Below are positions 264 through 55,013 of a stretch of 55,558 bases of DNA, one piece after another (position 1 is the first letter of the stretch; each line of letters starts with the position of its first letter). The position numbers and the translations under genes were made by a program. The stretch comes from a virus (lineage: Duplodnaviria; Caudoviricetes): positions 1 through 55,558 of IMG/VR virus record IMGVR_UViG_3300021492_000002, one strand, 5' to 3'. The notes below the pieces were generated by a model. That model was not told where the DNA came from. It saw only the letters and a list, made by a program, of their open reading frames with translations, and made no database searches.

Positions 264-3200
264 ATGGGTTTCTCAATAATACCATCGGATCATTATATAA
301 AGCCCGGTCGGATAACAGCAGCAGATATTAACCGGGCGTTTGATGATATAAATAATAGGCTTGGTGGCTCAAATTATGTTTTACCGCTTCTTGTTGCAGA
401 TACCAATATTATTTATCTTTCGCGCATTAGTGAATGGGGTCCTGATGATGTTGAAGTACATGTGAGAGATGTGACCCCTTATTCTACTGATCCAGCAACA
501 AGGACAGGTACGCTAAAGATATTGCCAAGTATTCCTACCGGTAGTTGTGTAAAGGATACCTCCACATGGGAGATTACTATTGAAGGTACGACGATTGGAT
601 CTGGGACGTTTGATGGAGCAACGCATGAGTTTAGTGGTATAGCTTTATATGGTAAGACGATAACAGTACATTTTCATTTTGATTTTGATGATTCGGTTGG
701 ATTTTTAGACGTAAGGGAGAAGGTTTTATTTAATTTCCAGCTTGCTGTAGAAGCGTTGACTGATGCTACTGATAAGCCCTGGAGTTATTATACAATTGTT
801 GGACGCGCCGAACCACTGCCTTCATTTGCGTCTTCATATCCCCATGTGCTTGTCAGATTTGATTCAAGGGTTGTTGAGACAGATGCTACAGGGACGGCTA
901 TGGTTACTGGTACCGTGTACTTTTCGTGGGGTAGTGATACGACAGGTACACATTGGGAGATCTATAAGGTTATTGATGGTACGGAGACATTAATATCATC
1001 AGGAACTGATGCTATATCAGAAAAAAATTTTAGTTTTAATGTTACTCTTACGGATGAGCGGGAGAAGGAGGTTATTTTAAAGGTTATTCTTGGTAATAGT
1101 ACATTTCCTAATGTGACTTTTACTGATAAGTGTTGGGTGATAACTGATATATCTAATGCTTTACCTCTGATTGAACAGATACCTTCATGTGTTGTTATGC
1201 CCCCACTGTGGGAGTCATTCTATACTGTTGGTTCGAGTACTTATGTCTATACATTCTATCTAACTACATCAGCTACCCATTGGGTTGGTGTTGATGATGA
1301 TAAGCGCGCGCTTAAGTTAGATATAGAGAACGACAATTATGAGATCAGGAAAACTGATGGTACATGGGCAACAATCGCTGATGCCGTTGAGAAAGTAATA
1401 GCTATTGCCCATACGCGTAATGCTAGTGGTAGCGAAAATATTTATGTATATGATCCTTATACATTAGATAGTTACATCTATGCAGGTGATGGTAACATAC
1501 CTTCCGGGGAGACCTTACTATATGTTGATTTTCTTGTAATGTTATCAAAGCAATATGATTACAGTTACATCAAATCACCCGGCGGTACTTATACCTATAA
1601 TGACAGTCCTATAGAATTTTTATATACAATAGCTGAACATGATACTGGTTTTACAGTTGTAGGTAGCAGGTCACATACGACTCATGTGCATTATTATCCT
1701 ATTTTGTCATCTTGTATTGCATTTTTTGATCCTACTAATATCAGCATGGAAAGTGGTGGTGGTGTTAGCACCCTTAGGGCTATTATTTTGAATGCTCCGT
1801 TACAGGAAGCCGATCTTATAAAATATGGGTTTATTAGCAGTTCTGCATCACCAACGTCGAAAATTGAATATCAGTATGTTATATCATGTCTGGAAGCCCC
1901 TGCGGGGATGACAGTTGAGATATATGATGATAGTGATAGCGACTGGCATCCTATTACATCAAGTAGTTATACCATTGATATAGGCGAACTTGATGGTGTA
2001 CCGGCTTATTACAGTTTCCCCGTACGTGTTGTTGGTACTACTACAGCTAATATTTTATTTAATGTGGAATTAGTTGCCAAATATCACGATGCGTCGGGTA
2101 CTGTTTCAACAGTATTAATAGAGCGCAGACATATAGCATTGGCTACGTTTTTATCTGGGGGCGCGGCGGCTTATGCAACCTCTCTCTCATTACCCCGCAC
2201 TAATTTCATGGTTTTTGTTGGTGGATATGGTATGGGTATACCGACGATTGCGAAACCAGATGTTAGTGATATTTACTTAGATAGCAGCACTCATTTGTAT
2301 TATCTTGGGCTCATCGCTCGCGAACCATTGAAAATTGCTTATGGGGACACTATAGAAGATATCATAGGAGGTGAATCAAGACTTGGTGGTGTAACACTAG
2401 AGGATATATCAGCATCCATGCTTGGGTATCGTCTTGATATGGATATTTTATTACCAGCGGGAGTGCTAAAGAGTGAAATCTATGTTGCTTATGATCCATC
2501 ATCAAAACATATCATAATAAGTAGCGAGTTTACAGGTGGTTGTATTCCTATAGGTGTATTAATAATTGAACGTTATGCTGAAACATTGTATCCGTCGTTG
2601 AAATTCATCCCCTATGTACACACGTATGTATATGAGGCAACACGTGGCTTAGAGGTGGGCCGCTTCGGTTTGGTGGACAAGGTTGGGGCAGATAGTCCTG
2701 TTATTGTTGCGACAACACATTTTGAAAATGCTGATGATTTGACAAATTTGCTTGCGCTTATGAATATTGGTGATAGTTGTTTGCTTATTGGTGAGAATTA
2801 TGCGAGTAGCGATTCCCTGAGATTCCCTTATGTGATGGGTGTAAGGAAGCTTGCGGAGGATAAGGTAAAGCTTACGATGCTTACTGATGTGGGTATGGCA
2901 ACTGTTTTAATGGAGAGTGCTAGCAAGTATGTTTATCCAGTATTAGATGTATTTAGAATTTATTATTTGGATGCATCCGGATCTCTACATACAGTCCCAC
3001 CACCTATGGGGGCGGTATATACAGGTTCAGCTATAACTGATACCCTTGTGCCATTAGCTGATTTGGGTGACGATCGAAAAATATTAGAAAATATTGGTGA
3101 GAAAGTTGTTATCATAGTTGAGCCATACATATATGTCGATAAAACTCTTTTACCTGATCCAAATATTAATATTATGAAAATGGAAGTTGTGTGCTCTGGT

Positions 3201-3380
3201 TCATATTCGATGGGTAGTGGAATACTTGTGCGACATTTTATAAGACTTGTTGATGAACATGGTATACATCATATAATGAGTATACCTGTGAAAATCATGT
3301 TATTTGGGTCTATGTATAATGCTCTTGGTGGTTGGGGTACATCTGGTGGTTCTGGTGGTCCATTTACACCTATAAGCTAA
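264..3380 (+). CDS. Large putative virion structural protein (1038 aa)
   Basis: Long ORF with GGAGG RBS and beta-rich T/S/G/Y/V composition. N-terminal 'ITAADINRAFDDI' resembles the N-terminal segments of tail-associated proteins. No family recognised. Confidence 0.6.
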   Translation: MGFSIIPSDHYIKPGRITAADINRAFDDINNRLGGSNYVLPLLVADTNIIYLSRISEWGPDDVEVHVRDVTPYSTDPATRTGTLKILPSIPTGSCVKDTSTWEITIEGTTIGSGTFDGATHEFSGIALYGKTITVHFHFDFDDSVGFLDVREKVLFNFQLAVEALTDATDKPWSYYTIVGRAEPLPSFASSYPHVLVRFDSRVVETDATGTAMVTGTVYFSWGSDTTGTHWEIYKVIDGTETLISSGTDAISEKNFSFNVTLTDEREKEVILKVILGNSTFPNVTFTDKCWVITDISNALPLIEQIPSCVVMPPLWESFYTVGSSTYVYTFYLTTSATHWVGVDDDKRALKLDIENDNYEIRKTDGTWATIADAVEKVIAIAHTRNASGSENIYVYDPYTLDSYIYAGDGNIPSGETLLYVDFLVMLSKQYDYSYIKSPGGTYTYNDSPIEFLYTIAEHDTGFTVVGSRSHTTHVHYYPILSSCIAFFDPTNISMESGGGVSTLRAIILNAPLQEADLIKYGFISSSASPTSKIEYQYVISCLEAPAGMTVEIYDDSDSDWHPITSSSYTIDIGELDGVPAYYSFPVRVVGTTTANILFNVELVAKYHDASGTVSTVLIERRHIALATFLSGGAAAYATSLSLPRTNFMVFVGGYGMGIPTIAKPDVSDIYLDSSTHLYYLGLIAREPLKIAYGDTIEDIIGGESRLGGVTLEDISASMLGYRLDMDILLPAGVLKSEIYVAYDPSSKHIIISSEFTGGCIPIGVLIIERYAETLYPSLKFIPYVHTYVYEATRGLEVGRFGLVDKVGADSPVIVATTHFENADDLTNLLALMNIGDSCLLIGENYASSDSLRFPYVMGVRKLAEDKVKLTMLTDVGMATVLMESASKYVYPVLDVFRIYYLDASGSLHTVPPPMGAVYTGSAITDTLVPLADLGDDRKILENIGEKVVIIVEPYIYVDKTLLPDPNINIMKMEVVCSGSYSMGSGILVRHFIRLVDEHGIHHIMSIPVKIMLFGSMYNALGGWGTSGGSGGPFTPIS

Positions 3381-4429
3381 TGTATAAGTATGTTAACATA
3401 GATGAAGCCGGTAGTAATGTTATTCCATTGTTTACGATGCATGGGCATATTATGCCGTGGGTTGTGCATAATGTATTTGCTAGTGAAGAAGGCTATGCTG
3501 CAACGGGTTATTACCTCCATCCATTTGATGTTGGTGGTATTAAATATTACTTTTATCATGAGCTTCCATCGGTGCCATCTACATTGAATGTTTATAGAAT
3601 TGATGGGGTACCATTGATTGAGCACGTTGATTATGATTTAGTTGGTAATAGGGTTTATCTTGATTGGTATTGGAGGTATGAGTCTATTATTATTGAAGCC
3701 GACGGCGTGAAGTTGGCTGCTGATTGGAGACCATATGAATTGTCAACAGAGCCAGTAGCTGATGCTAAGCGACACCATTTTCTTGTTCCTGTTGGAGATA
3801 TAATTGAATTTGACGGTTCAGAAGCAGGGCTTCACTATTATTATCCGCGCCTTATCCCTAGGAAGGTTTCAATGCCACCTGTTTATTATGATAGGTTTGA
3901 TTTAGTCTGGACACCGCCTTCTGGTACTATGTTATATGTTAAAGCGAAGCGGAAGAGATTTATAATTTATCAGACAGTACCATACGTAACATTAGATTTG
4001 GCGCACTATTATACATGGGATGGTTCTACATATGTTGAACATGATGTTAGTGATGTGTTATATTTTAAAAATACGGGGGAGATAAAATTTGATGATTATG
4101 TACCTTATGATGAAATAAGTTTCAAGGTTGTATCTGTTGATGGGATTGTTATGAACTTAAATATAAATCCTTCGAATCTTGAGTTATTGTCGAGGACCGA
4201 ATTCATGCCATCATTTTTAGTTGGTTATGCCATGGCATCTGATGCATTTCTTGTATCAGTTAGAGGATTTGACCACCGCATTCATTACTATGATTTTGGA
4301 GATATTAAGTCTGAGTTACACGGTATTACTGATGTTTTTTGGTTATGTGAATATAGATTATTAGATCCTCTGAAACGGTTAATGATGGTAAGACATGATG
4401 TCCATCGAAGGAGAGGAGGATATGTATAG
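3380..4429 (+). CDS. Hypothetical protein, probably structural
   Basis: ORF. Start placed at ATG 3380, which overlaps the upstream stop (TAATG). 'IEHVDYDLVGNRVYL' resembles short beta repeats of tail/baseplate proteins. Confidence 0.6.
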   Translation: MYKYVNIDEAGSNVIPLFTMHGHIMPWVVHNVFASEEGYAATGYYLHPFDVGGIKYYFYHELPSVPSTLNVYRIDGVPLIEHVDYDLVGNRVYLDWYWRYESIIIEADGVKLAADWRPYELSTEPVADAKRHHFLVPVGDIIEFDGSEAGLHYYYPRLIPRKVSMPPVYYDRFDLVWTPPSGTMLYVKAKRKRFIIYQTVPYVTLDLAHYYTWDGSTYVEHDVSDVLYFKNTGEIKFDDYVPYDEISFKVVSVDGIVMNLNINPSNLELLSRTEFMPSFLVGYAMASDAFLVSVRGFDHRIHYYDFGDIKSELHGITDVFWLCEYRLLDPLKRLMMVRHDVHRRRGGYV

Positions 4430-4841
4430 TATTGGTGAGACAGCCATTATACCGGTTTTATTTTTTGATGAGTCATATAGTCTGATGGATCCTGTTGAAT
4501 TGGAAGGGGAGTATGTTACCCTTACGATGTATCGTCTTGATGCAGCACCGTCTGTAGCGAAATTTATTGATAACTTTAAATGGATATACACAGGGGCTGC
4601 AGGCTTGTACGATCTAGAGGTTGTTGTTGAGGAGAATATACTAAGTGGTGGAGATTATTATATTGGGGCAACGAGATATGATGTGGGTATTTATGCATTA
4701 AAGGTTAAGCCGCGGCTTCCTGGCACTTATTATATTGTTGTAGAGGCTCATGCATCTGGTCTTGCTAGTGAATGTACTTTACAAACCTTTACCGTAAGAT
4801 TCATAGAGAAGAGAGACCCATCATTATTATTAATGGAATGA
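4422..4841 (+). CDS. Hypothetical protein (Ig-like beta composition)
   Basis: GGAGGA RBS before ATG 4422. 'PGTYYIVVEA' strand pattern. Confidence 0.6.
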   Translation: MYSIGETAIIPVLFFDESYSLMDPVELEGEYVTLTMYRLDAAPSVAKFIDNFKWIYTGAAGLYDLEVVVEENILSGGDYYIGATRYDVGIYALKVKPRLPGTYYIVVEAHASGLASECTLQTFTVRFIEKRDPSLLLME

Positions 4842-5242
4842 GTGAGTTAGCAACAGCGCGTGGGCTTCATCGTATAGTAATGTCGTTACCTGATGATGCA
4901 TATACGGCAACTATAAAACGATTTAAGGATTCGTTATTGTATGAGGAATCAGTTAATCTTGAGAAGCTTGATACAGAAAAGTATCTCCTAGAGTTTGTTG
5001 ATAAGTCGAGTGGTGATGGCTTGATATTTATCCAAGTTGTTAATTCTGTTGGTGATGTAGTAGCTTTTGAGGCCATTGGGGTTAGTGAGGTAAAAACAGA
5101 TGTATTATGGTTAGTTGGTTATGCAGATACCTATGGTGTACGTTATCCATTAGCAAAGGATGCATTTGTTATATTAAATCATAGTGATTTGCATTATCTG
5201 ATAAGGAAGAAATTAAAAGGTAACAGGTTTGGGAGGTCATAA
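4838..5242 (+). CDS. Hypothetical protein
   Basis: ATGA overlap with the upstream stop. Confidence 0.6.
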   Translation: MSELATARGLHRIVMSLPDDAYTATIKRFKDSLLYEESVNLEKLDTEKYLLEFVDKSSGDGLIFIQVVNSVGDVVAFEAIGVSEVKTDVLWLVGYADTYGVRYPLAKDAFVILNHSDLHYLIRKKLKGNRFGRS

Positions 5243-5739
5243 TGAATGTTGCGGTTGATAGATTCGTTGTCTTGCCTATAACATTTAGAACTAGTGGTGG
5301 GTATGCTACATTAGATCCATCTACGAACATAGATGTGGATATCACATATCTTCCGAATTTCGATAGTGATGATGGATCGACGGCAGTCAGTACATATAAT
5401 ATTTTTAACCCCCTAAGTGACCCGAATGTTTGCATTCTATCCTTCCTGTCATCGAAGAGGGGCATCTATATAGTAAAGGTAACATATACAGGGACTGAAA
5501 TATTATCAGAGCCACCAACTAAATATTTTGTTGTAACATGTGGTAATGATTATGATCCACCGCTAAAGCATACATATGTATATAATCCTCTAACTGGTAA
5601 TGTATCTGAGGTTCATACAGATTATTACAAAGATAGTGAGAGTACTGAAACCATTTTCAGGAAGAAGATTGTTGGGTTCGTCTATGAAGAGGATGGTGGT
5701 GAAGCACGGCTTAATGAGGTAACGGATAAGAATGAATGA
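5242..5739 (+). CDS. Hypothetical protein
   Basis: GGAGG RBS and TAATG coupling. 'GIYIVKVTY' is similar in pattern to the 4422 product. Confidence 0.6.
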   Translation: MNVAVDRFVVLPITFRTSGGYATLDPSTNIDVDITYLPNFDSDDGSTAVSTYNIFNPLSDPNVCILSFLSSKRGIYIVKVTYTGTEILSEPPTKYFVVTCGNDYDPPLKHTYVYNPLTGNVSEVHTDYYKDSESTETIFRKKIVGFVYEEDGGEARLNEVTDKNE

Positions 5740-5969
5740 TACGTAGGGAAAGAGAAACATATGCTGGGGCTGTCTATGTAACTGGTATACCGCTGCCTCT
5801 GACACCAAGAGCGTTTGATGGATTATACATCGGGGGACTTCTTTTGCCTTACTATGTCCCCAATGAATTCTATGATCGGTTGCAGACAGATACTGTTAAC
5901 TTTATAAATGCTGTCTTTGACTTCTGGAGGCCGGCGGGCTTATGTCACTACGTCTATTTGAAAGATTAG
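5736..5969 (+). CDS. Small hypothetical protein, possibly baseplate-related
   Basis: ATGA coupling. C-terminal 'DFWRPAG' weakly recalls the (K/R)PA(G/H) motif of baseplate wedge proteins. Confidence 0.45.
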   Translation: MIRRERETYAGAVYVTGIPLPLTPRAFDGLYIGGLLLPYYVPNEFYDRLQTDTVNFINAVFDFWRPAGLCHYVYLKD

Positions 5970-7153
5970 GTCTAGGAACAACTGATATAGATCGGACGAT
6001 CGATATCCTATTAGAGTTGCGTGATGCGCTTCAGCAGCTATCTAGGTGCGAGAAGCGCAAGCTATTAGAATCATATACTGATTTTGGTGGTTATCCATCT
6101 GATTTCAAGGAGCTTGTTGCCTTATTAACAAAGATCGAGGCATATGTTGAACTGATTGAACAGCGTTATCCTGCATTTAAGCAGTTCATCGATGATGTTC
6201 TTCGGTCACTTTATGATGTAAGACATCTTACATCTAGTGCTGTTTTTTCCTATATGGATGGTATTAATATCGATTATTATCCAGCACCTCATCTGTCATC
6301 TGTAACCGAAGAGGTTGATGTTAATGATATAGATGTTAGTGTTGTACCTTATACAGAGGATATCGAGGTTGGTGAGCATTTTATTGCATGTAGTCTTGAG
6401 CGTCAGGATAACATACAAAAGATTATATTATCTTTTAAATCTCCTATAAAGGCAACACGGATATGGATGCCAATTTTTGGTGCTAAGGTTGGGAGACTGC
6501 TTATTAATACAGTAAGCGCGGGCTTCGATTACTGGTATGGATACATTGTGCCAATCCATAGGGTTATTAATGCTGATGATAAGGTAACTATTGTTGTGGA
6601 GATGATGATGAAGCCGCGCTTCGAGGCTGTTAAGAAGCCGGCCGATGTGTGGAAATTATATAAAAAGCCTACTTGGATTGGAGATGCGGTTATTTTGAAG
6701 CCGCGCTTGGTATTAGATATATCATCAGGCGCGGGGCTTCTTGAAACAACAACATTACCAATGGTATTCGGCGATAATGGTAGTGTTGTACCGTTTGTCA
6801 AGGTAAATGGAATTTATTTCCCTGCAATTAGTCGTGAATATAGTGGATTACCATTTCCATTTCACTATGATGGGCGGTATTATTATTTCCCTATTTATAC
6901 ATCTGGTGATTTCACATCTAGTACGCCTCTTATGGGATATCGTACTGAGTACCGGTTATTTAAATCGTCATCACTTCCGGAGTTATCATATGAGGTTGAT
7001 TTTTCAGGATTTACACACTGGGTGTTTTGGAATCCTTGGAAAAATAAAATTGAAGCATATCCTTCGGAGGGATTGTTTGCTATACCTCATCTTGAGAGTG
7101 AGTTGATTATGATGCCGCCTCCTCCGACGGAATTGCCAGAGGCGCATGAATAG
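5942..7153 (+). CDS. Hypothetical protein (helical N-terminus, beta C-terminus)
   Basis: 403-aa ORF in the operon. Confidence 0.65.
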   Translation: MSLRLFERLGLGTTDIDRTIDILLELRDALQQLSRCEKRKLLESYTDFGGYPSDFKELVALLTKIEAYVELIEQRYPAFKQFIDDVLRSLYDVRHLTSSAVFSYMDGINIDYYPAPHLSSVTEEVDVNDIDVSVVPYTEDIEVGEHFIACSLERQDNIQKIILSFKSPIKATRIWMPIFGAKVGRLLINTVSAGFDYWYGYIVPIHRVINADDKVTIVVEMMMKPRFEAVKKPADVWKLYKKPTWIGDAVILKPRLVLDISSGAGLLETTTLPMVFGDNGSVVPFVKVNGIYFPAISREYSGLPFPFHYDGRYYYFPIYTSGDFTSSTPLMGYRTEYRLFKSSSLPELSYEVDFSGFTHWVFWNPWKNKIEAYPSEGLFAIPHLESELIMMPPPPTELPEAHE

Positions 7154-7161
7154 AGGCCAAA

Positions 7162-7563
7162 ATGGCAAGAGATATTGAATATAGGACATATGAGCCATAT
7201 GAGATACCGCGTGATGTCAGTCCTATATGGGTTGCGCCCCATATTGGCGACTTCGATGCTTATAGTATTTATAACTATTATCTATCTTATGTTGTTGAGA
7301 AGGTTTTGAGGTTACCATATGTTGATATTAAGGATGAGGTAGTACAACAGGGGCCGGGCTTATTCATCCCCGGTAAATATATCTTCCGTATCAAGCGTTT
7401 TGTTGCTGATGATGCGGTGCCAATTTACAGATTAAGAAAGGGCATCATTTATGTTTATGAGGAGATTAATAATATTCAAGTTTTAGAGGCTATTGTTTTG
7501 GATGAGCTTAAGTATGCGGCGGGCTTAATCAATGATGGAACATTTGGGCCTTATCTCAGATGA
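7162..7563 (+). CDS. Hypothetical protein
   Basis: ORF with GAGG RBS. Confidence 0.6.
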   Translation: MARDIEYRTYEPYEIPRDVSPIWVAPHIGDFDAYSIYNYYLSYVVEKVLRLPYVDIKDEVVQQGPGLFIPGKYIFRIKRFVADDAVPIYRLRKGIIYVYEEINNIQVLEAIVLDELKYAAGLINDGTFGPYLR

Positions 7564-8285
7564 AGGTTTATAGGAAAATAGATGCGTTTCCCATAGGTGA
7601 TGTTTTAACAGAGCTGTCTTCGATGATGTACAATGTAGATCAGACCGTTGGTCGTTTATCTCATGTTGTGGATAGGATCGATGGTGTTTCTGATTTATTT
7701 GATGAATATATAAAATTATTGCAGACAGTAGCAATTTATACAGAAGATCTTATAGGATTTGGAACATTTGAGAATATCCCCTTGGATGCTGTTGAAACGA
7801 ATGGTACTGTGATAAATGGCAAACTCTATTCCTATGTTCCTGTTGATAGTAAGTGGATTGTTAAGACGACTGTTGAAGGTCATTTATATATGGATGGTAG
7901 TGAGGTACCGATACCAAGTGAGTGTGTTGCTGAGGGGCATATAGTATTTTATGAAGGTGGTACTACGGAGGTGTTAAATCCGACAAATGTTGGGATGCTC
8001 TTTGATCGTGATATAAGTAAGGCATATCACTTGGAGGTTGCTGTTCCGGTAAATTATGAAGGAAGGATGGCACGTATTGCTGATGCATTATTTAAGATTA
8101 ATTTGCAGCCAAGAGATGGCATGGTTTTTGTTGGTGAGCTAAGGATTTATGTTAAAAGTGGTAGGATTAATGATATTTTAATTAATGGAGTATCAAGGAT
8201 GGTTGATTTGAAGTTTAAGGAACCATATATGGTATTAGAGGTTTTTGATGAGGTGGGAGACATATGGATTTACCTGAAATCATAG
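7560..8285 (+). CDS. Hypothetical protein
   Basis: ATGA coupling, 241 aa. Confidence 0.6.
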   Translation: MKVYRKIDAFPIGDVLTELSSMMYNVDQTVGRLSHVVDRIDGVSDLFDEYIKLLQTVAIYTEDLIGFGTFENIPLDAVETNGTVINGKLYSYVPVDSKWIVKTTVEGHLYMDGSEVPIPSECVAEGHIVFYEGGTTEVLNPTNVGMLFDRDISKAYHLEVAVPVNYEGRMARIADALFKINLQPRDGMVFVGELRIYVKSGRINDILINGVSRMVDLKFKEPYMVLEVFDEVGDIWIYLKS

Positions 8286-8494
8286 GATCAAGATTATCGA
8301 ACATTTCTGGTATGTGGATAAAGTTAGACCGGGAAGTTTTTGGCAGGAATATTGATGTATTTTTTGCGGAGTGGGTATCAAGAGATTATGATCGTCGTTT
8401 GGCTTTTGCTTTATGCAGTCATACGGAAGATAGTGCTGAAGGATTTAGGTATCAAGCACCAGATCTTTCACCTACCCCGAGAGGGGGTCTGTGA
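8264..8494 (+). CDS. Small hypothetical protein
   Basis: GGAG RBS before ATG 8264. Fills the gap and its stop is coupled to the next start. Confidence 0.5.
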   Translation: MDLPEIIGSRLSNISGMWIKLDREVFGRNIDVFFAEWVSRDYDRRLAFALCSHTEDSAEGFRYQAPDLSPTPRGGL

Positions 8495-10380: not shown

Positions 10381-10391
10381 GGGATAGAGAT

Positions 10392-12826: not shown

Positions 12827-12827
12827 A

Positions 12828-18263: not shown

Positions 18264-18275
18264 TAGGAGGTAATA

Positions 18276-40581: not shown

Positions 40582-40594
40582 ACCTCTTTTCTCC

Positions 40595-40622: not shown

Positions 40623-40630
40623 CTATCAAT

Positions 40631-40658: not shown

Positions 40659-40678
40659 GTGAAAAGAGAGGGGAGCAC

Positions 40679-44238: not shown

Positions 44239-44668
44239 TGCTCAGTGTGTTCAGCAGGTTAATGCTGTTTCCAGAAGCGACGGCTTCCCTGATATATTAC
44301 TGTACATCAATGGTCTTTATGACCGTTCATATGCAATAAAAGTCGAATATGTCATGTGTGATTCTATTGATACCCTTATCTATCGCGGTAGTGGGGCTTG
44401 TTTATTAATCGGTAGTGAGCACATATTTATCTTTAATGATATTAATATCGCACATATAAGAGTCCCTGTTTTGCCTGGGCATGACTATGATTTATATATA
44501 TCTGCATTAGGTATAACAACATCGGGAAGTGATACAACAATAAGATATCACTTTTATTATGAGATAGAAAATGTGGAGGAATGGATATGCAAAGAATTAT
44601 TAATAGATACAGTAGTTGTCGATACATTGGATACATTTCCATCCTTTCCATCCTCATCAGTGTATTGA
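44174..44668 (+). CDS. Secreted hypothetical protein
   Basis: Signal peptide MARIHFIKVTFILLFLGLSIINA. FN3-like 'VLPGHDYDLYISA'. Confidence 0.6.
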   Translation: MARIHFIKVTFILLFLGLSIINAQCVQQVNAVSRSDGFPDILLYINGLYDRSYAIKVEYVMCDSIDTLIYRGSGACLLIGSEHIFIFNDINIAHIRVPVLPGHDYDLYISALGITTSGSDTTIRYHFYYEIENVEEWICKELLIDTVVVDTLDTFPSFPSSSVY

Positions 44669-47127: not shown

Positions 47128-50100
47128 TGCTTACCCTGTTACAGCAGTTAATAGTCTTCCTGATAGCTTTACTACATCTTTAAGGATTATTGATATCGAA
47201 GGCCGGCCTATTAAGGTTTCCTCTGTTGATACCATTATTATTGAGACATTTTATGATACTATTAATACACATGACACGATTTTATTTCTTACGTCATATA
47301 CAAGTATTTTCCAGTTTATTGAGTGGATAAAATATTATAGTGGAAATTACTATGTAAGGTTGAAGCCCGGCTTCGGTAGTAAAGGGACAAGTACTGATTC
47401 AATAAGAGGGCCGTGGCCTCCAGTAATGCATGAGGTTTATCAGGGAGATACATTATACTTGTATGCCCGTATTTACTTACATATAAGGTGGGCACCATTT
47501 GAACATGCGTGGAACGATCAATTAAGTTACATACGATTATTATACATATGGAATTCAACAGCAAGCAAGTATGTCCTTCACAAGATATCTACAGTGCAAT
47601 TCGATCCAATTACTATTGGAAGGACAAACAGGCATGAGCTTTATAAAGAGGGATTGTTTTGGGGATTAAATCTACGGAAGATCTATTTTCATTGTGATAC
47701 TACCATTACGACGGCTTCAAGTCCTAAAACTATTTGTTACTTACACTACCCCGTTGACCTTGAGCTGATTCACAAGAAATTTTCGACTTATGACCGTTAT
47801 TTTATATTAAACAGTCTTAATATGTGTCGTTTTATTGCTGATAGTGATAGCTCAGCATCAAGTACATCTCCTATAAAACACATAATGAATGCGGGCTTCA
47901 TTGATGACATAGCATCAATTATCTCGCAAGACATATCATTAGATGGTATAGGCTACATCAGTGATATTAGTACGCATCAAGATACATATGTAATCGTTAT
48001 AAATGGTATAACGAAGAGAAAATATCGTTTCTCTGGTATAACAGAGAGTGATTCACTTAATCCTGTTGATTCTGTTGTTGTTTGCAAAGGTTATGGTGTT
48101 TCTGATAGCGTATTATATTTCCGTGCTCATAATGATACGGCTGTTATTGTTCTTAAGGCGCTGGCTTCCGACTCCTTTTACATCGCACTTTGTGCCATCG
48201 TCAAGGTTGACACAACCATTGATAGCTCAAGGCATTTAACTTATATTGATTACTTACCAGTCGGGATTTTTAGGATTCCACGTCGAACAAGTGGCGGCGG
48301 CTTAATAACAAGATTCATATCATGTGATCACTCGGACTTTCATATCGTGCAGCCTGGATTAATGCCAATCGTTTATGATACTCTGTCAGAAATGCCCGAT
48401 ACAATAGGCGCGCCTCTCTTCAGATGGGTTGCTCTTACAAAAGGGATTATAACACATAATGATTCAACTAAGCTAGTAGCCGTTGCCATAATTAAGGACA
48501 CAGTGCTTGTGTGGGATGTAACGAATGATACGACCATTATGTTTGGTTTACCTATTAGTGTGGATACGACATACTATTATACTGAAATAGCATCCCAACC
48601 ATATGATACATCCCTAATCGTATTCCTCCTTGATAATGATGATGAATTATTGTATATCCTTACCATCAACTATGATCTTTCATGGGATACTACAAGCATC
48701 CACCTACCATATCTCGGACAGAGAAAGTTTGTTTTTGCAACAACATGCGTTGACACAGGACCTTACTATGAGTACCCCATAGGGTGTAATTGCGACACAT
48801 CAGATAATGTATGCGATTCATTAAAATGGGATTATGAACTTATAGAACCTATAACGAAGTACTCCTATCATACTATTTATCCACTTGTGTACGATAAAAG
48901 GGACGAGTACTACACATTACTTAATTTAGATGATTCAATTGATGTCAGATTCGATTCTTTGATATATTTCTGGTCAATGACAATAAGAGATCTCATAGAA
49001 GATGCCTTTGACGGCATTCAGTGGATTGATGTTAAACCAACATTAGCTGGCAGATCCAATTTACTTCATCAACCTTTCATTTATTATAAGCTCCCGGGTT
49101 CATGGCACTGGGACATAAGAGGTGGAACATATGGACCTGCTGTTGGTTGGAATAGCAGTTCCGTTTACCATGAATTGAACTGCCGCTATGCATACCTTTT
49201 GTCACCGATACGCAATAATTTATCAGATGGGAGGCTTCGATATTGTCTAAGGGCATACCGCAACTATCCCTTACGCTTAAGATTTGTTTATACAGACCCC
49301 AGTGGTATCTCAAATCCATCAGGGGTATACCCATGTGTTTATAGAATAAGTTTAAAGGGGAAATATTTTTCTAGCACTCGTATGTCAAGTTCATGGTATT
49401 GGGCACACAGAGTCTATCCGCGTTATTCATATGACTTCCAGATAGAAGTAGATCCTGGTACCGTGCCTGAAATGATTATAGGTACATGGTTCATTGAGTT
49501 TACTATGAATTCTGCAATATATACTGACACAGTTTTTATAAGAAATCAGGTTAACCATACGGGTATTAGATACTATGTAGAAGGATTTGATTTTGCTAAT
49601 ATTGATTCTTTATTTACCACCGTTTGGTGGGAATATGGGCGTCCATCGTATGCAACTCTTCAATTCGATTTTTATTTTATTGATTATACACCACCACGAA
49701 GCGGCGCGAGTATTACTGTCCTTGGATATCTTGATAAACACCAAGCTGATACATTATTTAAAAATGATAGCATTTGTGGTAGATGTATTGACACATTGAC
49801 ACCCTATTATATCAATGTAGTACATAGAACAGCTAGTGGATTAATATCATTAACTAACGGGTTTATAGGCTTGATTATGGACAGAGAATTTGATTTCCGC
49901 AATGATGGATGGTTACAGGGGATACCTACATATTATTGGGATAGAAATGCTGAAACATGGCATCCAACTGGTGTTGATAGCCATATTATTGATCTTCACA
50001 TTTATTATGGAAGGCCGGGCTTCATCGATGCAACACCTAACTGTGTAATTACCTATAATGGTTATCGATATCGATCTCGCCATATTATTAATCCTAATGA

Positions 50101-50161
50101 ATATGGGACGTGGGGGTTAAGAAGGCGGCGCTTCTGGAATGGTATTAAGCTCCCGCCGTGA
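47072..50161 (+). CDS. Large secreted hypothetical protein (1029 aa)
   Basis: GAGGAG RBS, signal peptide MVRRFIWATLVLFISAAINA, beta-rich. Confidence 0.7.
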   Translation: MVRRFIWATLVLFISAAINAYPVTAVNSLPDSFTTSLRIIDIEGRPIKVSSVDTIIIETFYDTINTHDTILFLTSYTSIFQFIEWIKYYSGNYYVRLKPGFGSKGTSTDSIRGPWPPVMHEVYQGDTLYLYARIYLHIRWAPFEHAWNDQLSYIRLLYIWNSTASKYVLHKISTVQFDPITIGRTNRHELYKEGLFWGLNLRKIYFHCDTTITTASSPKTICYLHYPVDLELIHKKFSTYDRYFILNSLNMCRFIADSDSSASSTSPIKHIMNAGFIDDIASIISQDISLDGIGYISDISTHQDTYVIVINGITKRKYRFSGITESDSLNPVDSVVVCKGYGVSDSVLYFRAHNDTAVIVLKALASDSFYIALCAIVKVDTTIDSSRHLTYIDYLPVGIFRIPRRTSGGGLITRFISCDHSDFHIVQPGLMPIVYDTLSEMPDTIGAPLFRWVALTKGIITHNDSTKLVAVAIIKDTVLVWDVTNDTTIMFGLPISVDTTYYYTEIASQPYDTSLIVFLLDNDDELLYILTINYDLSWDTTSIHLPYLGQRKFVFATTCVDTGPYYEYPIGCNCDTSDNVCDSLKWDYELIEPITKYSYHTIYPLVYDKRDEYYTLLNLDDSIDVRFDSLIYFWSMTIRDLIEDAFDGIQWIDVKPTLAGRSNLLHQPFIYYKLPGSWHWDIRGGTYGPAVGWNSSSVYHELNCRYAYLLSPIRNNLSDGRLRYCLRAYRNYPLRLRFVYTDPSGISNPSGVYPCVYRISLKGKYFSSTRMSSSWYWAHRVYPRYSYDFQIEVDPGTVPEMIIGTWFIEFTMNSAIYTDTVFIRNQVNHTGIRYYVEGFDFANIDSLFTTVWWEYGRPSYATLQFDFYFIDYTPPRSGASITVLGYLDKHQADTLFKNDSICGRCIDTLTPYYINVVHRTASGLISLTNGFIGLIMDREFDFRNDGWLQGIPTYYWDRNAETWHPTGVDSHIIDLHIYYGRPGFIDATPNCVITYNGYRYRSRHIINPNEYGTWGLRRRRFWNGIKLPP

Positions 50162-51023
50162 TGAACTTGGCAAGTGATTTATTATTAACGATGCTATCGA
50201 ATGTAGCCTCGCCAGCAATGCGTCTTAATAAAGCATTTATCTTTACTAACATCTTACGAGGGGTTTTATCATAACCAAGAAGCCGCGCGGCTTCCATGCT
50301 TACAAACATATTATCCACCACATCATAAGCAATCTTTATCCCTTCTGTAGGTCGATCCTGTGTGTAGACATTGATAATATCAATATGTAATGAAGCCACG
50401 CTCGAAACCTTTTCAACTTTATATAGTGATTTAATCATCGTCTTTCTAAAATCCCCTCCAGGGCTATCCTTCTTAACCTTCTTCGCCAGTTTCCTGCTCC
50501 AAGCAATATTAGAAACAAAGACAAATGGGACGCGACTGCTCAACCATCTATAAATACCCATCATAAACCTAGAGAAGCCCGCTCTATCAAATGCCTGTGG
50601 TGGCATATTAAATTCGTTTTCCGATATCAAAGCCGCTGCATTCAGAATAAAAACACCAACAAGTGCATCATAACCCGCAACAGCATCATAGATCTCCTTT
50701 TCGATGCTTTGTTTAAATGAATTCTGAAGAATTGTTATATTCCTCTTAATCCTATCGGGTAAGGATTGTAATAACTTACTGTCAGATGTATGTCTTATAG
50801 GATCGATTATTAAAATAGGAAAGGATGATGCCAATGTTGTTGCATAATGGAGTATAAGATCTTCACAATGTGAGTTAGGATACATTAGAAATTCATGGAT
50901 GCCTATGGAAGGAAGAAAGATCCGATCAAGCTCTATTATGCCTGATGCAATGAAAGGATTGTCGTTATTATATATCCCTTCCTCTTCTATGAGCTTTTTC
51001 ACATCAAAATAATCAAGCTTCAT
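50145..51023 (-). CDS. RecA/RadA-like protein with degenerate Walker A
   Basis: 'IASGIIELDRIF...GIHEF' N-terminal signature, 'ILIID', 'FVFVSN', 'SPGGDFRK'. The P-loop position reads MYPNSHCE. Adjacent to PolB. Confidence 0.6.
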   Translation of the reverse strand: MKLDYFDVKKLIEEEGIYNNDNPFIASGIIELDRIFLPSIGIHEFLMYPNSHCEDLILHYATTLASSFPILIIDPIRHTSDSKLLQSLPDRIKRNITILQNSFKQSIEKEIYDAVAGYDALVGVFILNAAALISENEFNMPPQAFDRAGFSRFMMGIYRWLSSRVPFVFVSNIAWSRKLAKKVKKDSPGGDFRKTMIKSLYKVEKVSSVASLHIDIINVYTQDRPTEGIKIAYDVVDNMFVSMEAARLLGYDKTPRKMLVKINALLRRIAGEATFDSIVNNKSLAKFITAGA

Positions 51024-53284
51024 ACTAATACTCCCTCCTTTATGTTGAATCCAAACTTCTCCAGTAATTTAGATAATTTATCGGAATAATACTCATATGC
51101 AAGATCAATTTTATCCTTCCAATTCGGATCGTACTCTCTATCGACAAGATGATAATGTCTATTTTTGTTTACGACATATTCAACCTTCGTGCCGTGGGTT
51201 ATCTCACTTATCCCATGTCGTTCCATAAGCTGGCGGGCAAGGCGGGCTTCAACACTATTCTTGTTCTTGTATTCATCAGGCTGACTCTTTGATATCGATG
51301 TAGACATAATAAATTTCTCTACAGGAAACTTTGTAAGATCAAGATACTTATGTAATAATGATTGATCCTCACCATAGAATATAACGCGAACAATATCCCA
51401 TAAACATTCCTTATAAATAGGCGGCTGCTTCGGTGATGCTAAAGCCGATCCCTTAAAGATAATGGTATCACCATCCTTTAGAACATAACTCTTCATGGCT
51501 ATCGAATACATAGCATCATATTCCTCTTGCTCCATGAATGTTGTAATGTTTTCTTTATCAATGCCATACTTCTCATGTATATAAGCCGCGACGGCTTCAT
51601 TTATCTCATTTACATCAACGTAATCTGATATATAAACACCATCGGTATCGTATTCTATAACACTGTCTCCAAGCTTATTAATAACGAAACTTATAACATC
51701 ACGACAGAAGCCAACCACTGCAATAGCAATGGAAAGATCACCTACCTTTGAATTTTTGTTTCCATGTATTCCATAGATTGAGTTCATAACAACCTTACGC
51801 GCAACCTGAGCTGCTTGTGTCGCTTTATACTCAGGACTATCCTTTTTTAACTTTGATAATTTTTTCTTAAGCGTTTTTCTATCGTTATACATCTCCTTAA
51901 GGACGAGACGGTAAATGCTATCAGATGATTGATCTATCTCAACAACAATCGTTTTATCAAGATTATCGTCAGGTACCTCTATGATTAAGGATGTATCCTT
52001 CCAGTACGCATTAATATTATCTTGGTAATCCTTAACCTCGATAATTTTTGTTGTATCGGGACCAGCATTTAATGTTATGAGTGAGTTAGGATAGAAGGAG
52101 CTGAAATCGATTTTATACACAGGTTTGAAGTAACCTTTCTTTTTGACACCGATAAGCGCGCCTTGGTATTTATTCCATATCTTCTTTGTATTAAATGATG
52201 CTATGCGTCCATCTAATCCGTATTTCTGTGCATTGGAGAGAAGCCCGATGACCTTTTTCTTAAATAAGCCGCGCAGCGTTACGATACGTGGTATAAAGGC
52301 AGGGTATGAATTCATAATAGCATCAAGAGGAACCTGCATGTATTCAGCTAGTGCAATAATGTTATCAATGTAACGCATAGCAAGCTGATATGTTAAAATA
52401 ATGTCATTCTGATGGTATCTTTCTAATTCCTTTGTTCCTACCCATTCACTCATGTTCATGTGTGGAAGGCGGATGGCTTCATATCCAAAATACTCACCTA
52501 CCGTTTCCAGCTTTTTATTCTGTAGTTTTCCCAGTAGTGATTGATCTTTGTCAACTGATTCCCATACATCATAATGGAGGAAGCCGCGCGGCTTAATCTC
52601 TATTGACGACCCTTCCTGTGTTGCAAGGAATAGACGCTCAAATTCATCTATAAGGTCCAATCTTACACATCTTTCATAAATGTAACGCAGATCGAAGTGC
52701 TTGGAATAATAACCTGCTAAAACAGTAGGTTTTACTTCTGCAATAGTCCTAAGAAACCACAGTAATAGTTCCCTTTCCTCCTGTTCTGTACCTGATGTAT
52801 ATCTTGCTAATAGCCGTTCTCCATCATAGATACCCAATGCAATAATAGGATCTGTATCGTAATTGGCAAATTCGCCTGCATGGCTAAGAACCTCGATATC
52901 GAATGATGCTACCCGTACGGTTGATTTACAGTTGAAAAGATGTGGTGCAAAGACATAGAGTGCTTCGTTTGCAGCGAGGTGGAAGTATGGAAGCCGCCCG
53001 TTTTTTAAGCGATGCACCTTGCGTCGGAGATAATTGCGGTCAATTTTGTTAATGGGAAAACCACATACATCTTCATCAACTCTTCTCGATGCAAAGACAC
53101 AGATTGAAGCCGGCTCCAATGTTCCAATAACTCTGAAGCGTGTAAGTTCATAACGCTGCGAGAATGATGGAACAAAAAGTAGCTCCCCTACCGGTAGTTT
53201 AATGTACTTACCATCCTTGTAATCTGTGAGAAGGAAGCCTCGCCCTTTTGCGAAGTATAATTTGAGTGGTACCGATATTTGCAT
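51020..53284 (-). CDS. polB: Family B DNA polymerase with 3'-5' exonuclease
   Basis: ExoI FDIE, ExoII YSKHFD, ExoIII YHQND, motif A DFSSFYPN, motif B KVVMNSIYG, motif C YDTDG. Confidence 0.95.
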   Translation of the reverse strand: MQISVPLKLYFAKGRGFLLTDYKDGKYIKLPVGELLFVPSFSQRYELTRFRVIGTLEPASICVFASRRVDEDVCGFPINKIDRNYLRRKVHRLKNGRLPYFHLAANEALYVFAPHLFNCKSTVRVASFDIEVLSHAGEFANYDTDPIIALGIYDGERLLARYTSGTEQEERELLLWFLRTIAEVKPTVLAGYYSKHFDLRYIYERCVRLDLIDEFERLFLATQEGSSIEIKPRGFLHYDVWESVDKDQSLLGKLQNKKLETVGEYFGYEAIRLPHMNMSEWVGTKELERYHQNDIILTYQLAMRYIDNIIALAEYMQVPLDAIMNSYPAFIPRIVTLRGLFKKKVIGLLSNAQKYGLDGRIASFNTKKIWNKYQGALIGVKKKGYFKPVYKIDFSSFYPNSLITLNAGPDTTKIIEVKDYQDNINAYWKDTSLIIEVPDDNLDKTIVVEIDQSSDSIYRLVLKEMYNDRKTLKKKLSKLKKDSPEYKATQAAQVARKVVMNSIYGIHGNKNSKVGDLSIAIAVVGFCRDVISFVINKLGDSVIEYDTDGVYISDYVDVNEINEAVAAYIHEKYGIDKENITTFMEQEEYDAMYSIAMKSYVLKDGDTIIFKGSALASPKQPPIYKECLWDIVRVIFYGEDQSLLHKYLDLTKFPVEKFIMSTSISKSQPDEYKNKNSVEARLARQLMERHGISEITHGTKVEYVVNKNRHYHLVDREYDPNWKDKIDLAYEYYSDKLSKLLEKFGFNIKEGVLV

Positions 53285-53358
53285 ATCAAAGCCTCCTTTT
53301 CAACTCCTTTACCACAGCGGGCAGAGGGGCACCTGTGCGGTGCAAAGAGGATTATTCA

Positions 53359-54012
53359 TTACATAATACCAAATGATAATTCTCTTAAATACTCGATCCC
53401 CGTTGCTAGGTTATCAAATCTTACATCAATCATTTCATCGATGAATGGATGCATATGCTTGTCATCCGTTATAACGGCCACTATATGCTTTCGTTGATTG
53501 TATGCCCATGCAAGCTCACATATGCATCCTATTGATATATCACTTGTGAAACCATCTTCGATGATAGCGAATAATATATCCGATTGCGAGAGCATCCAGA
53601 AGTCGCGCCTCATATGATACTTCATTGAAAGAGCCACCTTGTCGGATCTTAATCTAATATAAGTATGATTATCTTTACCGACAGGTTGACCCGGAATAGC
53701 TGCCTCCTTTAACAGAATAGGTAGAAAAACTTTTAAGCCCGCCGACCTTAATTCATCAGCTATTGAGGATAACCTGTGTTTCACTACATCCCAGGGAAGT
53801 CCTGTTATCGGATGCGAAATATAAACAGATAGCTGACGAGTTGCAAATGTTGGACTTGTATTAACAGTTGCGGGTAATGAGTCATTAACGCCATATGTTG
53901 AACCTGTGTTATCTATATGTTTCCAATGTTCCTCTTTACATGGCATCTCGTAAGGATAATTGGGGATTATCTGAGGCCAACCGTCTTTTTCAGGATGTTT
54001 GCACATTCTCAC
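53359..54012 (-). CDS. Nucleoside 2-deoxyribosyltransferase-like / nucleotide N-glycosidase fold protein
   Basis: VYISHPITG, RRDFWMLSQSD, SIGCICELAWAY motifs. Confidence 0.7.
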   Translation of the reverse strand: MRMCKHPEKDGWPQIIPNYPYEMPCKEEHWKHIDNTGSTYGVNDSLPATVNTSPTFATRQLSVYISHPITGLPWDVVKHRLSSIADELRSAGLKVFLPILLKEAAIPGQPVGKDNHTYIRLRSDKVALSMKYHMRRDFWMLSQSDILFAIIEDGFTSDISIGCICELAWAYNQRKHIVAVITDDKHMHPFIDEMIDVRFDNLATGIEYLRELSFGIM

Positions 54013-54380
54013 CTCCCTTTTGGTATCTCCAATCTCTCTAATATATAATGATGCACATAATACTTGTCAAGGATATTTTTTATATTTATAGATACAGAAT
54101 TTTTGTTAGATTTATTAAGCGCCCGCTTCAATATAAAAATATACATATCCTCATTAAAAAATATAATCAGCAATGGGGTTAAGCCCCGCACAATGGCATT
54201 ATTCCATAGTTTGTCAAGGAGAGACTTCGTTACTCGAAAGCGCGGCTTCCCCGTACTCTTAACCTCGATAGCATACTCATCACTAACAACATCTACATCA
54301 CCATGCGTAGAACCACTAGCTTTTGTAAACCTTCCTTTACATAAGGATCTAACTATTTCCTCGGCTTTTCTCCAGTTCAT
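54009..54380 (-). CDS. Holliday junction resolvase-like PD-(D/E)xK nuclease
   Basis: W..AE...SGS..GDVDV....IEVKST...PLLII pattern. Confidence 0.75.
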   Translation of the reverse strand: MNWRKAEEIVRSLCKGRFTKASGSTHGDVDVVSDEYAIEVKSTGKPRFRVTKSLLDKLWNNAIVRGLTPLLIIFFNEDMYIFILKRALNKSNKNSVSINIKNILDKYYVHHYILERLEIPKGR

Positions 54381-54434
54381 GATTATATGATTATGATATA
54401 CTTGCCCCTAATGTTATTAAAAAATAAATTTAAC

Positions 54435-55013
54435 TTAACAACACAAGAATTTTATATATCTGAATTCCTTTGCATAAATATATATTAAGGCTCCATCTCT
54501 CAGAGCATTTTTCAAATCAATGAAGCACCACTGCTTATCACCCACATTAATAAATCCATTACCACATATAAAATTACCACATTTAGGACATTTATTCACC
54601 AAGTATTGCACCTCCAATATCTCTTCTGGCGTTGCAGAATACTCTTGGTATATAGGAACACAGCAAGACTTTATTCTATAGAAAACAAATGGTGATGCGA
54701 TAAGATATGGTGGTATAAAGTCAACATCTTCAATTGAGGCCGGCGCTTCAGAACCATCAAACGCATTAGTAGTTAATAAATAAATGTTAACTCCACCCAT
54801 ATTAAGAAGGGTGATCATATTATCAAAGAATTTATCATAATCAAAGTTAATAGCAGATTCTATTATCCTGTTAATGTTAGATGATATCGGCTTCAACTTT
54901 AGCTTTTTTGTATCTTTACTTTTAGAGAATATAATATAGTAATACATATTAATGTCCTTCATTCTTTTGAAATATCGAAACAACCCTGAATCGATGATTA
55001 GTTGAGCGAACAA
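54435..55013 (-). CDS. Hypothetical protein with CxxC motif
   Basis: ORF with CPKCG. Start uncertain (may be ATG near 54947). Confidence 0.5.
   Translation of the reverse strand: MFAQLIIDSGLFRYFKRMKDINMYYYIIFSKSKDTKKLKLKPISSNINRIIESAINFDYDKFFDNMITLLNMGGVNIYLLTTNAFDGSEAPASIEDVDFIPPYLIASPFVFYRIKSCCVPIYQEYSATPEEILEVQYLVNKCPKCGNFICGNGFINVGDKQWCFIDLKNALRDGALIYIYAKEFRYIKFLCC

Follow-up and report, generated by a model that had tools for sequence, protein, structure and literature searches.

HIP1, the uptake sequences and Chi are hyper-abundant motifs of cellular chromosomes, and most of them are poorly understood. Here we report the analysis of a dispersed, G/C-rich DNA element that recurs all over a 55,558-base stretch of a tailed phage (IMG/VR record IMGVR_UViG_3300021492_000002; the whole of this stretch is hereafter referred to as the window), that is, in a small and tractable phage genome. 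A first, sequence-only reading of the window had described it as a quasi-palindrome, GAAG-S4-8-CTTC (where S is G or C), iterated within coding sequence. The data presented below give good support to a signal which is lineage-specific, resides at the DNA level, extends genome-wide and is kept by selection.

HIP1 (GCGATCGC) of the cyanobacteria is, as described in PMC5861425, hyper-abundant, located both within and between genes, conserved across genomes and of unknown function, and in all these respects it resembles the phage element. It is, however, a fixed 8-bp palindrome of a cellular chromosome with a periodic distribution, whereas the element of the window is asymmetric, accepts either G or C in a core of variable length and is spaced at random. 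The uptake sequences (USS of Pasteurellaceae and DUS of Neisseriaceae) are also asymmetric, lie on both strands, in several frames and at poorly conserved residues, and with their hundreds to thousands of copies they shift peptide frequencies, as outlined in PMC2817400; they are fixed 9-12-mers tied to bacterial competence, while the core of the present element is degenerate and a phage has no uptake step. Primase sites share with it a specific 3' element including one or more uncopied bases, copied bases located 5' in the template and an information content that fades with distance, but they are 3-5 nt long and are not known as extended, selected genomic elements; a role of our element in priming is one that we infer. 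Chi is likewise an asymmetric GC-rich oligomer, frequent and in one orientation, although it is the fixed sequence of a host enzyme and is skewed with replication, whereas here six bases are fixed. The stoperators of cluster A mycobacteriophages are asymmetric, dispersed within and between genes and oriented with transcription, as in our case, but they amount to some 20-35 fixed 13-bp repressor sites per genome, against about 400-540 degenerate ones here. Finally, the GC clusters of yeast mitochondria and other mini-elements are short GC-rich islands in AT-rich DNA, some of them coding; the yeast clusters are insertions of 30-50 bp thought to be mobile, whereas eight of the nine S-runs (uninterrupted runs of G/C) checked here are substitutions. 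All together, the element is similar to HIP1 and to the uptake sequences in abundance, placement and conservation, without a fixed word, a palindrome requirement or periodicity.

Exact copies of GAAG-S4-8-CTTC occur 15 times in the window, and each of those quoted in the sequence-only reading lies where it had been placed. The expectation was 0.03 copies in 200 dinucleotide shuffles (maximum 1), 0.10 under a third-order Markov model (maximum 2) and 2.7 under a fifth-order one (maximum 8), which already holds the 6-mers of the motif itself; shuffling synonymous codons or codon order, 200 times each, gave 0.3 (maximum 2) and 0.0 (maximum 1) copies, respectively. The codon and Markov shuffles proposed as a check thus do not reproduce the counts (0.0-2.7 across null models), and the reversed controls CTTC-S-GAAG and TTC-S-GAA have no copy in the window. 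The half-site SSSSSSGCTT[AC] is found 60 times against 0.62 +/- 0.81 expected, a number reached in 0 of 100 shuffles. Considering the G/C runs as such, at least one AAG/CTT flank is present on 112 of the 182 runs of six or more bases and on 54 of the 66 runs of eight or more, with both flanks on 32, in agreement with the statement that most runs of at least six bases are bracketed. Also the total of roughly 100 copies counted by eye is fair, as 97 S-runs of at least six bases carry an AAGC/GCTT flank, and 128 GCTT[CA] pentamers of the window have at least five G/C among the six bases upstream. The GC content measures 38.1%, rather than the 35% assumed at that time. The window holds 65 single half-sites and 32 two-flank elements, the latter including the 15 exact copies (strand not assigned for two-flank elements):

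1302..1313, two-flank element AAGCGCGCGCTT
4707..4718, two-flank element AAGCCGCGGCTT
6514..6525, two-flank element
6610..6622, exact copy GAAGCCGCGCTTC, identical in the related record G001
6698..6708, two-flank element
11081..11096, exact copy GAAGCCGGCGGGCTTC
14486..14497, exact copy GAAGCCGGCTTC
14649..14658, two-flank element
15805..15816, two-flank element
15934..15946, exact copy GAAGGCCCGCTTC
20321..20332, two-flank element
22216..22229, exact copy GAAGCCGCGGCTTC, the commonest 14-mer, read KPRL
26080..26092, exact copy GAAGCGGGGCTTC
27887..27900, exact copy GAAGCGCGCGCTTC, changed in G001 by T>C in the right flank, unlike the other 14 exact copies
31713..31722, two-flank element
33031..33041, two-flank element
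35509..35522, exact copy GAAGCGGCGCCTTC
35781..35794, exact copy GAAGCCGCGGCTTC, read EAAAS
36036..36047, two-flank element
38479..38491, exact copy GAAGCCGGCCTTC, within the primase-helicase gene
39339..39352, exact copy GAAGCCGCCGCTTC, within the primase-helicase gene
41159..41170, two-flank element
41444..41455, two-flank element
47362..47374, exact copy GAAGCCCGGCTTC
50010..50023, exact copy GAAGGCCGGGCTTC
50121..50134, exact copy GAAGGCGGCGCTTC, read RRRRF
50279..50294, exact copy GAAGCCGCGCGGCTTC
51239..51249, two-flank element
52154..52164, two-flank element
52581..52594, two-flank element AAGCCGCGCGGCTT
54117..54128, two-flank element
54238..54248, two-flank element
2157..54748, plus strand, 36 single half-sites, S-run(>=6)-GCTT, starting at 2157, 2657, 5929, 6728, 7350, 7516, 10174, 11373, 12468, 13243, 15993, 16122, 16799, 17295, 18772, 19449, 20735, 21416, 26482, 28188, 28300, 30298, 30837, 31769, 32204, 33000, 36987, 37208, 40018, 40192, 42123, 45823, 46610, 47891, 48293 and 54738
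300..54189, minus strand, 29 single half-sites, AAGC-S-run(>=6) as read on the plus strand, starting at 300, 6635, 15156, 17215, 20662, 22150, 24730, 26688, 27838, 27918, 29448, 29826, 33721, 37253, 38148, 39238, 39794, 40841, 40996, 43772, 47113, 49699, 50575, 51583, 52266, 52991, 53107, 53735 and 54181

Two longer records belong to the same phage group, G001 (175,796 bases, 40.2% GC, rated 100% complete) and G002 (147,433 bases). The window, whose completeness is estimated at 32%, shows 91-93% identity to G001 across about 51 kb, the alignment stopping at position 54955, while G001 and G002 share about 96% identity. As the genes of G001 include those for the large terminase, the portal and a tail-sheath-like protein, the phage is a tailed, myovirus-like and uncultured one of about 176 kb, whose tail is probably contractile.

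The anatomy of the element was derived by aligning the ends of the S-runs outward and splitting them by run length. For runs of at least eight bases, C is found at position -1 in 82-86% of the ends, T at +1 in 76-80% and T at +2 in 54-64%, followed by C or A at +3; G occupies positions -2 and -3 in 61-66%, and deeper positions show no preference between G and C. The ends of short runs (3-5 bases) show no preference at all. For runs of at least seven bases, 97 of 226 ends are GC|TT, compared to 4.8% for S-runs of 3-4 nt. It is only upstream of GCTTC and GCTTA that the G/C content is raised, over six to seven bases, before it returns to the baseline. In G001, the 614 GCTTC pentamers distribute as 15, 50, 84, 75, 100, 138 and 152 for 0 to 6 G/C among the six upstream bases, that is, in two classes, a background and one with 4-6 upstream G/C, a second mode which is missing from control pentamers. 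The S-run accepts one or two A/T bases. It is therefore well supported that the signal is built of asymmetric half-sites some 11 bp long, 5'-S(6-8, ending GGC)-TT-C/A-3', corresponding to about one helical turn. By our own arithmetic, with the background subtracted, G001 contains about 540 half-sites in 176 kb, or about three per kb; a stricter, run-based definition gives 389 elements, one per 452 bases.

The quasi-palindrome originally proposed as the unit does not hold. Both flanks are found on 53 runs of G001, fewer than the roughly 68 that independence of the ends would predict, with a slight excess at length 8 only (24 versus 19.8); therefore the half-site is the unit and the palindrome is secondary. 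Palindromic copies are, with good support, two facing half-sites on one shared S-run, most often GAAGCCGCGGCTTC, and the perfect palindromes of G001, AAGCCGCGGCTT (11 copies) and AAGCCGGCTT (5 copies), are the product of two GGC|TT ends sharing one run. The same palindromes are what could recommend a hairpin or cruciform, or an RNA stem-loop for processing, termination or promoter activity, one of the candidate functions first put forward, but this explanation has become very unlikely. Single half-sites outnumber two-flank elements by 65 to 32, and the latter are not over-represented. The cores are hardly more self-complementary than shuffled ones, as 39 GAAG..CTTC sites fold with a mean of -3.54 kcal/mol at 37 C versus -2.90 for shuffled cores (24 of 39 being lower), and at 65 C the sites are nearly unstructured (mean fold energy -0.65, RNA parameters). 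Moreover, two-flank sites have no positional bias within the genes of G001, and no Rfam family matches the motif sites. What the sequence-only reading had correctly recognised is that the core is variable, unlike a fixed restriction-type site or HIP1: cores differ in sequence and in length (4-13), so that no single fixed palindromic word explains the excess. The term undescribed also stands, as a full-text search of open papers returned no text with the motif strings, and a broader one no similar phage element.

With regard to placement, the 90 two-flank sites considered in G001 fall 47, 19 and 19 times in the three frames and 5 times in intergenic DNA. The latter figure matches the 5.8% non-coding share of this genome, the density of coding and intergenic sites being equal. 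The commonest frame (47/90) reads K-[PRAG]n-[LF], and the peptides KPRL, EAAAS and RRRRF, formerly quoted as examples of different frames, are translated as claimed. Half-sites are likewise found in all frames and in both orientations. Frames, intergenic sites and codon shuffles all agree with the proposal of a signal at the nucleic-acid level that overrides codon choice and some residues. In the primase-helicase gene, eight of nine S-runs stand in ungapped, poorly conserved columns and one coincides with a two-residue insertion, in an alignment of 20 sequences at about 24% identity whose gap placement is uncertain. S-runs in ungapped columns imply that the sites arose by substitution; it is well supported that they are created by substitution at tolerant codons or residues, and not by insertion. 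An orthologue comparison, as had been suggested, thus shows sites at poorly conserved residues, and synonymous positions conserved with respect to G001.

These data make it extremely improbable that the element results from codon usage, a recurrent peptide, mobile mini-insertions, or assembly or adapter effects. The prevalence of the K-[PRAG]n-[LF] frame and the single two-residue insertion are in line with such an origin, but the synonymous and codon-order shuffles yield 0.3 and 0.0 copies in place of 15, the other two frames and the intergenic DNA carry the signal, the remaining eight S-runs are ungapped relative to the homologues, and S-run lengths are not multiples of three. As for an assembly or adapter artefact, which had been indicated as a way to refute the element, the signal and the same sites are shared by three independent assemblies differing by 4-9%.

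On the sense strand, S-run-GCTT occurs 233 times versus 80 for AAGC-S-run, a bias observed in all four genome regions, and site orientation flips with short gene blocks, with no single switch at an origin. The motif-free proteomes of distant relatives could encode S-run-GCTT 1.5-1.6 times as often as AAGC-S-run; therefore about half of the orientation bias is coding opportunity. As a separate observation, the GC skew of both the window and G001 is strong (+0.2 to +0.29), tracks the coding strand and flips with gene blocks, the sense strand being rich in G and in T. The spacing of the sites is random (coefficient of variation, CV, 0.95 versus 0.995 +/- 0.049 for random placement), as judged by a simple CV test instead of the damped-sine fit of the HIP1 paper, and the periodicity which the sequence-only reading proposed to look for was not found. 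The longest element-free stretch (L012, G001:109820-112963) measures 3.1 kb, which is no more than random placement predicts (mean maximum gap 2.9 kb); it contains the pair of genes that follow the portal and an ORF of 448 aa, possibly capsid genes.

Over the 50,864 bases aligned between the window and G001, divergence at all sites is 7.7% (3900/50864). Third codon positions diverge by 16.6% genome-wide (2671/16049) and by 26.6% in short G/C runs (350/1315), compared to 5.2% in two-flank sites (6/116; p 4e-4 versus genome-wide and p 9e-9 versus short runs), where first and second positions show a single change (1/246, 0.4%). Among long runs, third-position divergence is 17/218 for flanked and 13/75 for unflanked ones (p 0.03). 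Fourteen of the 15 exact copies and 27 of the 32 two-flank copies are identical in G001, whereas only 43% of random windows of the same length are; as for HIP1, conservation goes beyond the background. The contrast is weaker between G001 and G002, with 228 of 294 elements identical (77.6%) versus 66.5% of random windows. In the contigs of four sequencing runs on positions 30001-42000, none of the variant places listed (40 of 198) falls in the four exact copies, 0.2 being expected.

Selection on whole sites is indicated by the synonymous positions within the six bases upstream of GCTT[CA]: their G/C fraction is 0.33 when none of four neighbouring non-synonymous positions is G/C and 0.87 when four of four are, while controls remain at 30-46% up to three G/C neighbours, the control four-of-four classes being small. 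As synonymous positions are G/C only where their neighbours are, whole sites are selected, and not single bases beside the pentamer. A simple, position-independent mutation or conversion bias beside the pentamer is thereby excluded; a process acting solely on near-complete sites remains compatible with the data.

Such a process would be a molecular drive of the HIP1 or uptake-sequence kind, in which repair, recombination or transmission converts near-sites and the sites have otherwise no function. The abundance, the presence in all frames, the poorly conserved residues and the shifted proteome resemble the uptake sequences (PMC2817400), and the conservation across genomes resembles HIP1 (PMC5861425). 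Element decay among close strains is mostly C>T, and the polarised changes comprise four element-breaking ones on one branch and one clear gain, too few to be weighed. The phage moreover has a gene for a UDG-superfamily glycosylase, by which repair could be biased towards G:C. We nevertheless regard a drive as unlikely, because the synonymous positions beside GCTT[CA] are G/C-enriched only if the rest of the run is, a core accepting G or C is hard to square with repair that is sequence-specific, neither a C5 methylase nor an N6/N4 methylase nor a type IB topoisomerase is detectable in G001, and the mechanism would be one without a precedent to name.

A phage methylase as the cause, that is, the methylation-directed mutation suggested by the sequence-only reading, was discarded as far as phage enzymes are concerned. 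The candidate is the following ORF:

54949..55554, minus strand, DPPY methylase-like ORF, truncated at the window end

The DPPY motif of this ORF is that of amino-methyltransferases. G002 shares the ORF with the window at 97% identity, but it is missing from G001, where the dispersed element has its full density and where neither PF00145 nor PF01555 has a match. This uneven occurrence marks it as an accessory gene, located at a junction that varies between strains.

The signal is lineage-specific, and none of the more distant relatives examined has it. GC|TT ends are missing from all of the 80 viral loci that encode a homologue of the primase-helicase (21-34% identity), where at equal GC content long G/C runs are about one tenth as many. 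Of 51 metagenome loci with a related polymerase, the 28 of at least 6 kb were examined, and the only one with the signal was G001 itself (48/112 ends). An exact 14-mer scan of IMG/VR returned at least 114 stretches and, among the matches listed, several copies occurred only in records of this phage group. A 183 kb record (L059) considered as a second carrier was not convincing, with 7 of 34 ends GCTT. Some members of the primase group have motifs of their own. L170 (positions 1-17766), with a primase-helicase 22% identical, shows an analogous, weaker motif, TTCG-S-CGAA: CG|AA is found at 14 of 56 run ends (corrected p 3e-6), and 17 S4-CGAA half-sites in 17.7 kb. The AT-rich L188 and L184 carry dense GC-rich words, L188 repeating CATCCGGGCG(G) and L184 GCGCGGC/GGCGCGCC-type runs. 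Lineage-specific GC-rich motifs may be common in the AT-rich phages of this primase group.

The words of L184 and L188, which have homologous primases, could also be taken in favour of a Chi-like signal taming a helicase-nuclease, either the RecBCD/AddAB of the host or the SF2 helicase and PD-(D/E)XK nuclease of the phage, for end protection or the start of recombination. The unit is in fact asymmetric, dense and on both strands, and the phage does encode a Cas4-like PD-(D/E)XK nuclease and an SF2 helicase; the reported Chi of Staphylococcus aureus is GAAGCGG, to which GAAGCC(S) is similar. However, known Chi sequences are fixed, while here GGCTTC alone is, and the orientation bias is largely a coding effect. 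This explanation appears to us quite unlikely.

The habitat of the phage is suggested by ten sequencing runs in which half or more of the words sampled from a 10 kb stretch are present; by their labels, nine are hydrothermal vent metagenomes and the tenth is a marine one, and one of the ten is possibly the source of the record. The IVYWREL fraction of the proteome, 0.427, corresponds to about 65 C by the growth-temperature formula 937F - 335, derived from cellular proteomes, and stands near the top of 80 relatives, whose median is about 27 C. The host is likely thermophilic.

With six bases specified and a one-sided stretch that has only to be G/C, the grammar of the unit points to a function reading base-pair strength. 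Two kinds of reader would fit it, a process depending on hybrid or duplex stability, or a protein reading the minor groove. Along the first line, we tentatively favour the possibility, which falls well short of a probability, that the primase of the phage itself, which is of DnaG type and fused to a DnaB-type helicase, uses the half-sites as strong priming sites; priming was not among the candidates of the sequence-only reading. The gene concerned is:

38236..40581, minus strand, primase-helicase gene: Zn-binding Cys, DnaG core, Toprim, DnaB-like C-terminal; candidate reader

The product (781 aa) has DNAG_N, Toprim and DnaB_C domains and conserved N-terminal cysteines, its best solved relatives are bacterial DnaG primases, and the half-site has the likeness of a primase site: a specific 3' part and then, 5' in the template, a part constrained in pairing strength alone. 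The recognition site of the primase would be d(CTT), which falls in the d(CTN) class of cellular DnaG primases, and synthesis would start at the middle T, so that the primer would begin with pppAG; the S-run would then be copied into an all-G/C primer of about 8-10 nt (template 5'-S...S-G-G-C-T-T-3', primer pppA-G-C-C, then G/C only). At 38-40% GC and roughly 65 C, only all-G/C primers would stay annealed until the handover to the polymerase, and selection would therefore keep hundreds of half-sites on both strands. From the reading of CTT onward, we infer every one of these steps.

Described primases offer precedents for the individual parts of the scheme. For cellular DnaG primases the initiation sites are d(CTA), d(TTA) or d(CTG), the first base copied is the middle one and the primers begin with pppAG, as summarised in PMC2978363. 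The Aquifex primase uses trinucleotides of G/C only, d(CCC), which its authors read as thermal adaptation (PMC2532735), and for the site 5'-(G/C)GGA-3' of AtTwinkle, a plant relative of the T7-type primase-helicases, two cryptic, uncopied 3' bases are described as needed (PMC5737085). In our element C(-1), T(+1) and T(+2) are the most constrained positions, which fits the DnaG trinucleotide class as far as sequence can tell. The T7 gp4 primase is said to read 5'-(G/T)2GTC-3', and in a recent paper (PMC12839067) flanks beyond this pentanucleotide reportedly matter. Half-sites occur about once per 0.65-0.9 kb of each strand, which is the scale of Okazaki fragments. The motif of L170, with TTCG-S-CGAA, hints that other fused primase-helicase lineages may carry their own versions, with flanks tracking the specificity of the primase.

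The second kind of reader corresponds to the candidate binding protein of the sequence-only reading, whose proposal of a cis-element system stands in so far as the sites are dispersed and far above chance, and falls as regards the palindromic unit. Such a protein, encoded by the phage or by its host, would bind dsDNA, be abundant and use the sites as an array for genome organisation, compaction, packaging or self-marking. GGCTTC would be read in the major groove, and the S-run by way of the minor groove or of DNA shape, in which G:C does not differ from C:G. The footprint of about one helical turn, a core that is degenerate as S versus W and not base-specific, the use of either orientation, the equal density in coding and intergenic DNA (5/90 in 5.8% non-coding) and the conservation of synonymous positions, with whole sites selected, would all suit such an array, and the reader could hide among the ORFs, most of which have no family. 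On the other hand, no candidate protein was identified, and the small basic ORFs at 27482 and 27852, singled out for this purpose in the sequence-only reading, have no Pfam family; about 540 sites per genome demand a very abundant protein, the random spacing gives no sign of phasing, and the tolerance of one or two A/T bases in the S-run suits a stability threshold better than shape readout. We consider the array a possible but rather doubtful explanation.

As for priming by the phage primase-helicase, several points weigh against it. So far it is a fit of sequence and architecture. Characterised primases need 3-5 specified bases, and dedicated, extended priming sites are not known from any genome. 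Site orientation tracks the gene strand (233:80), changing along with the gene blocks; being set by gene strand and in part by coding opportunity, it gives no support to priming. L169 and L134, two loci whose primase is homologous and whose predicted growth temperature is high, are without any such flank. For L170 the prediction is cold adaptation, and priming at its flank would have to start with a pyrimidine. The spacing is random and not regular (CV 0.95), and the estimate of about 65 C comes from a formula for cellular proteomes.

The remainder of the window is densely packed with ORFs. The gene types recognised are a tail-fibre-like gene, an AAA ATPase, the UDG-superfamily glycosylase, the SF2 helicase, the primase-helicase, the Cas4-like PD-(D/E)XK nuclease and a family B DNA polymerase, and most ORFs of the phage have no known family. 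The replication module includes:

51020..53284, minus strand, family B DNA polymerase gene

The best identity of primase-helicase and polymerase in any collection searched is about 31-34%. Matches of the polymerase to cultured phages are all below 22% identity, and a 10 kb portion of the window compared to cultured phages by Megablast gave no match. A search of 5.8 billion proteins returned a single distant homologue of the polymerase, at 28% identity, whose contig was not found among viral contigs, and a scan of genome contigs gave distant relatives only, at 26-34% identity. No tRNA genes were found in the window or in G001.

Further observations concern individual genes. The UDG-superfamily glycosylase (28971-29699, plus strand; Pfam E 8e-15) has viral clusters as its closest ones in a protein atlas, and it would suit a phage whose cytosines deaminate fast; third-position G/C bases of short runs diverge by 27%, compared to 17% overall. 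The product of 53359-54012 (minus strand) matches nucleoside 2-deoxyribosyltransferase below the threshold (25.3 bits, the cut-off being 28.8) and could bear on the nucleotide or base metabolism of the phage. Two adjacent paralogues of 651 aa (18276-20231 and 20243-22198, plus strand) share about 70-72% DNA identity. The tail-fibre-like segment 22744-25611 is the part of the window most diverged from G001 (72-80% identity or unaligned) and is probably a host-range region. Giant ORFs without a family are found at 44581-50161 of the window (plus strand; 848 and 1029 aa) and at G001:124650-147084 (1337-2353 aa), where the 1337-aa ORF has an endolysin-like C-terminal part.

In conclusion, the phage carries a signal strong enough to alter codon choice and amino acids, with an unusual grammar in which six fixed bases stand beside a stretch required only to be G or C. 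It is conceivable, and we advance it tentatively, that a thermophilic phage has written several hundred composite priming sites, each made of an initiation trinucleotide and the template of a G/C primer, into its coding sequence, thereby reshaping its proteome, and that these sites let the lagging strand be made in AT-rich DNA at about 65 C. This hypothesis can be tested on a single 781-aa enzyme with oligonucleotides. If true, this would be the first genome with evolved, extended priming sites, and replication would be seen to adapt to heat in a way that is new; if false, the phage would still be a clean system for studying how a dispersed signal persists inside coding sequence.

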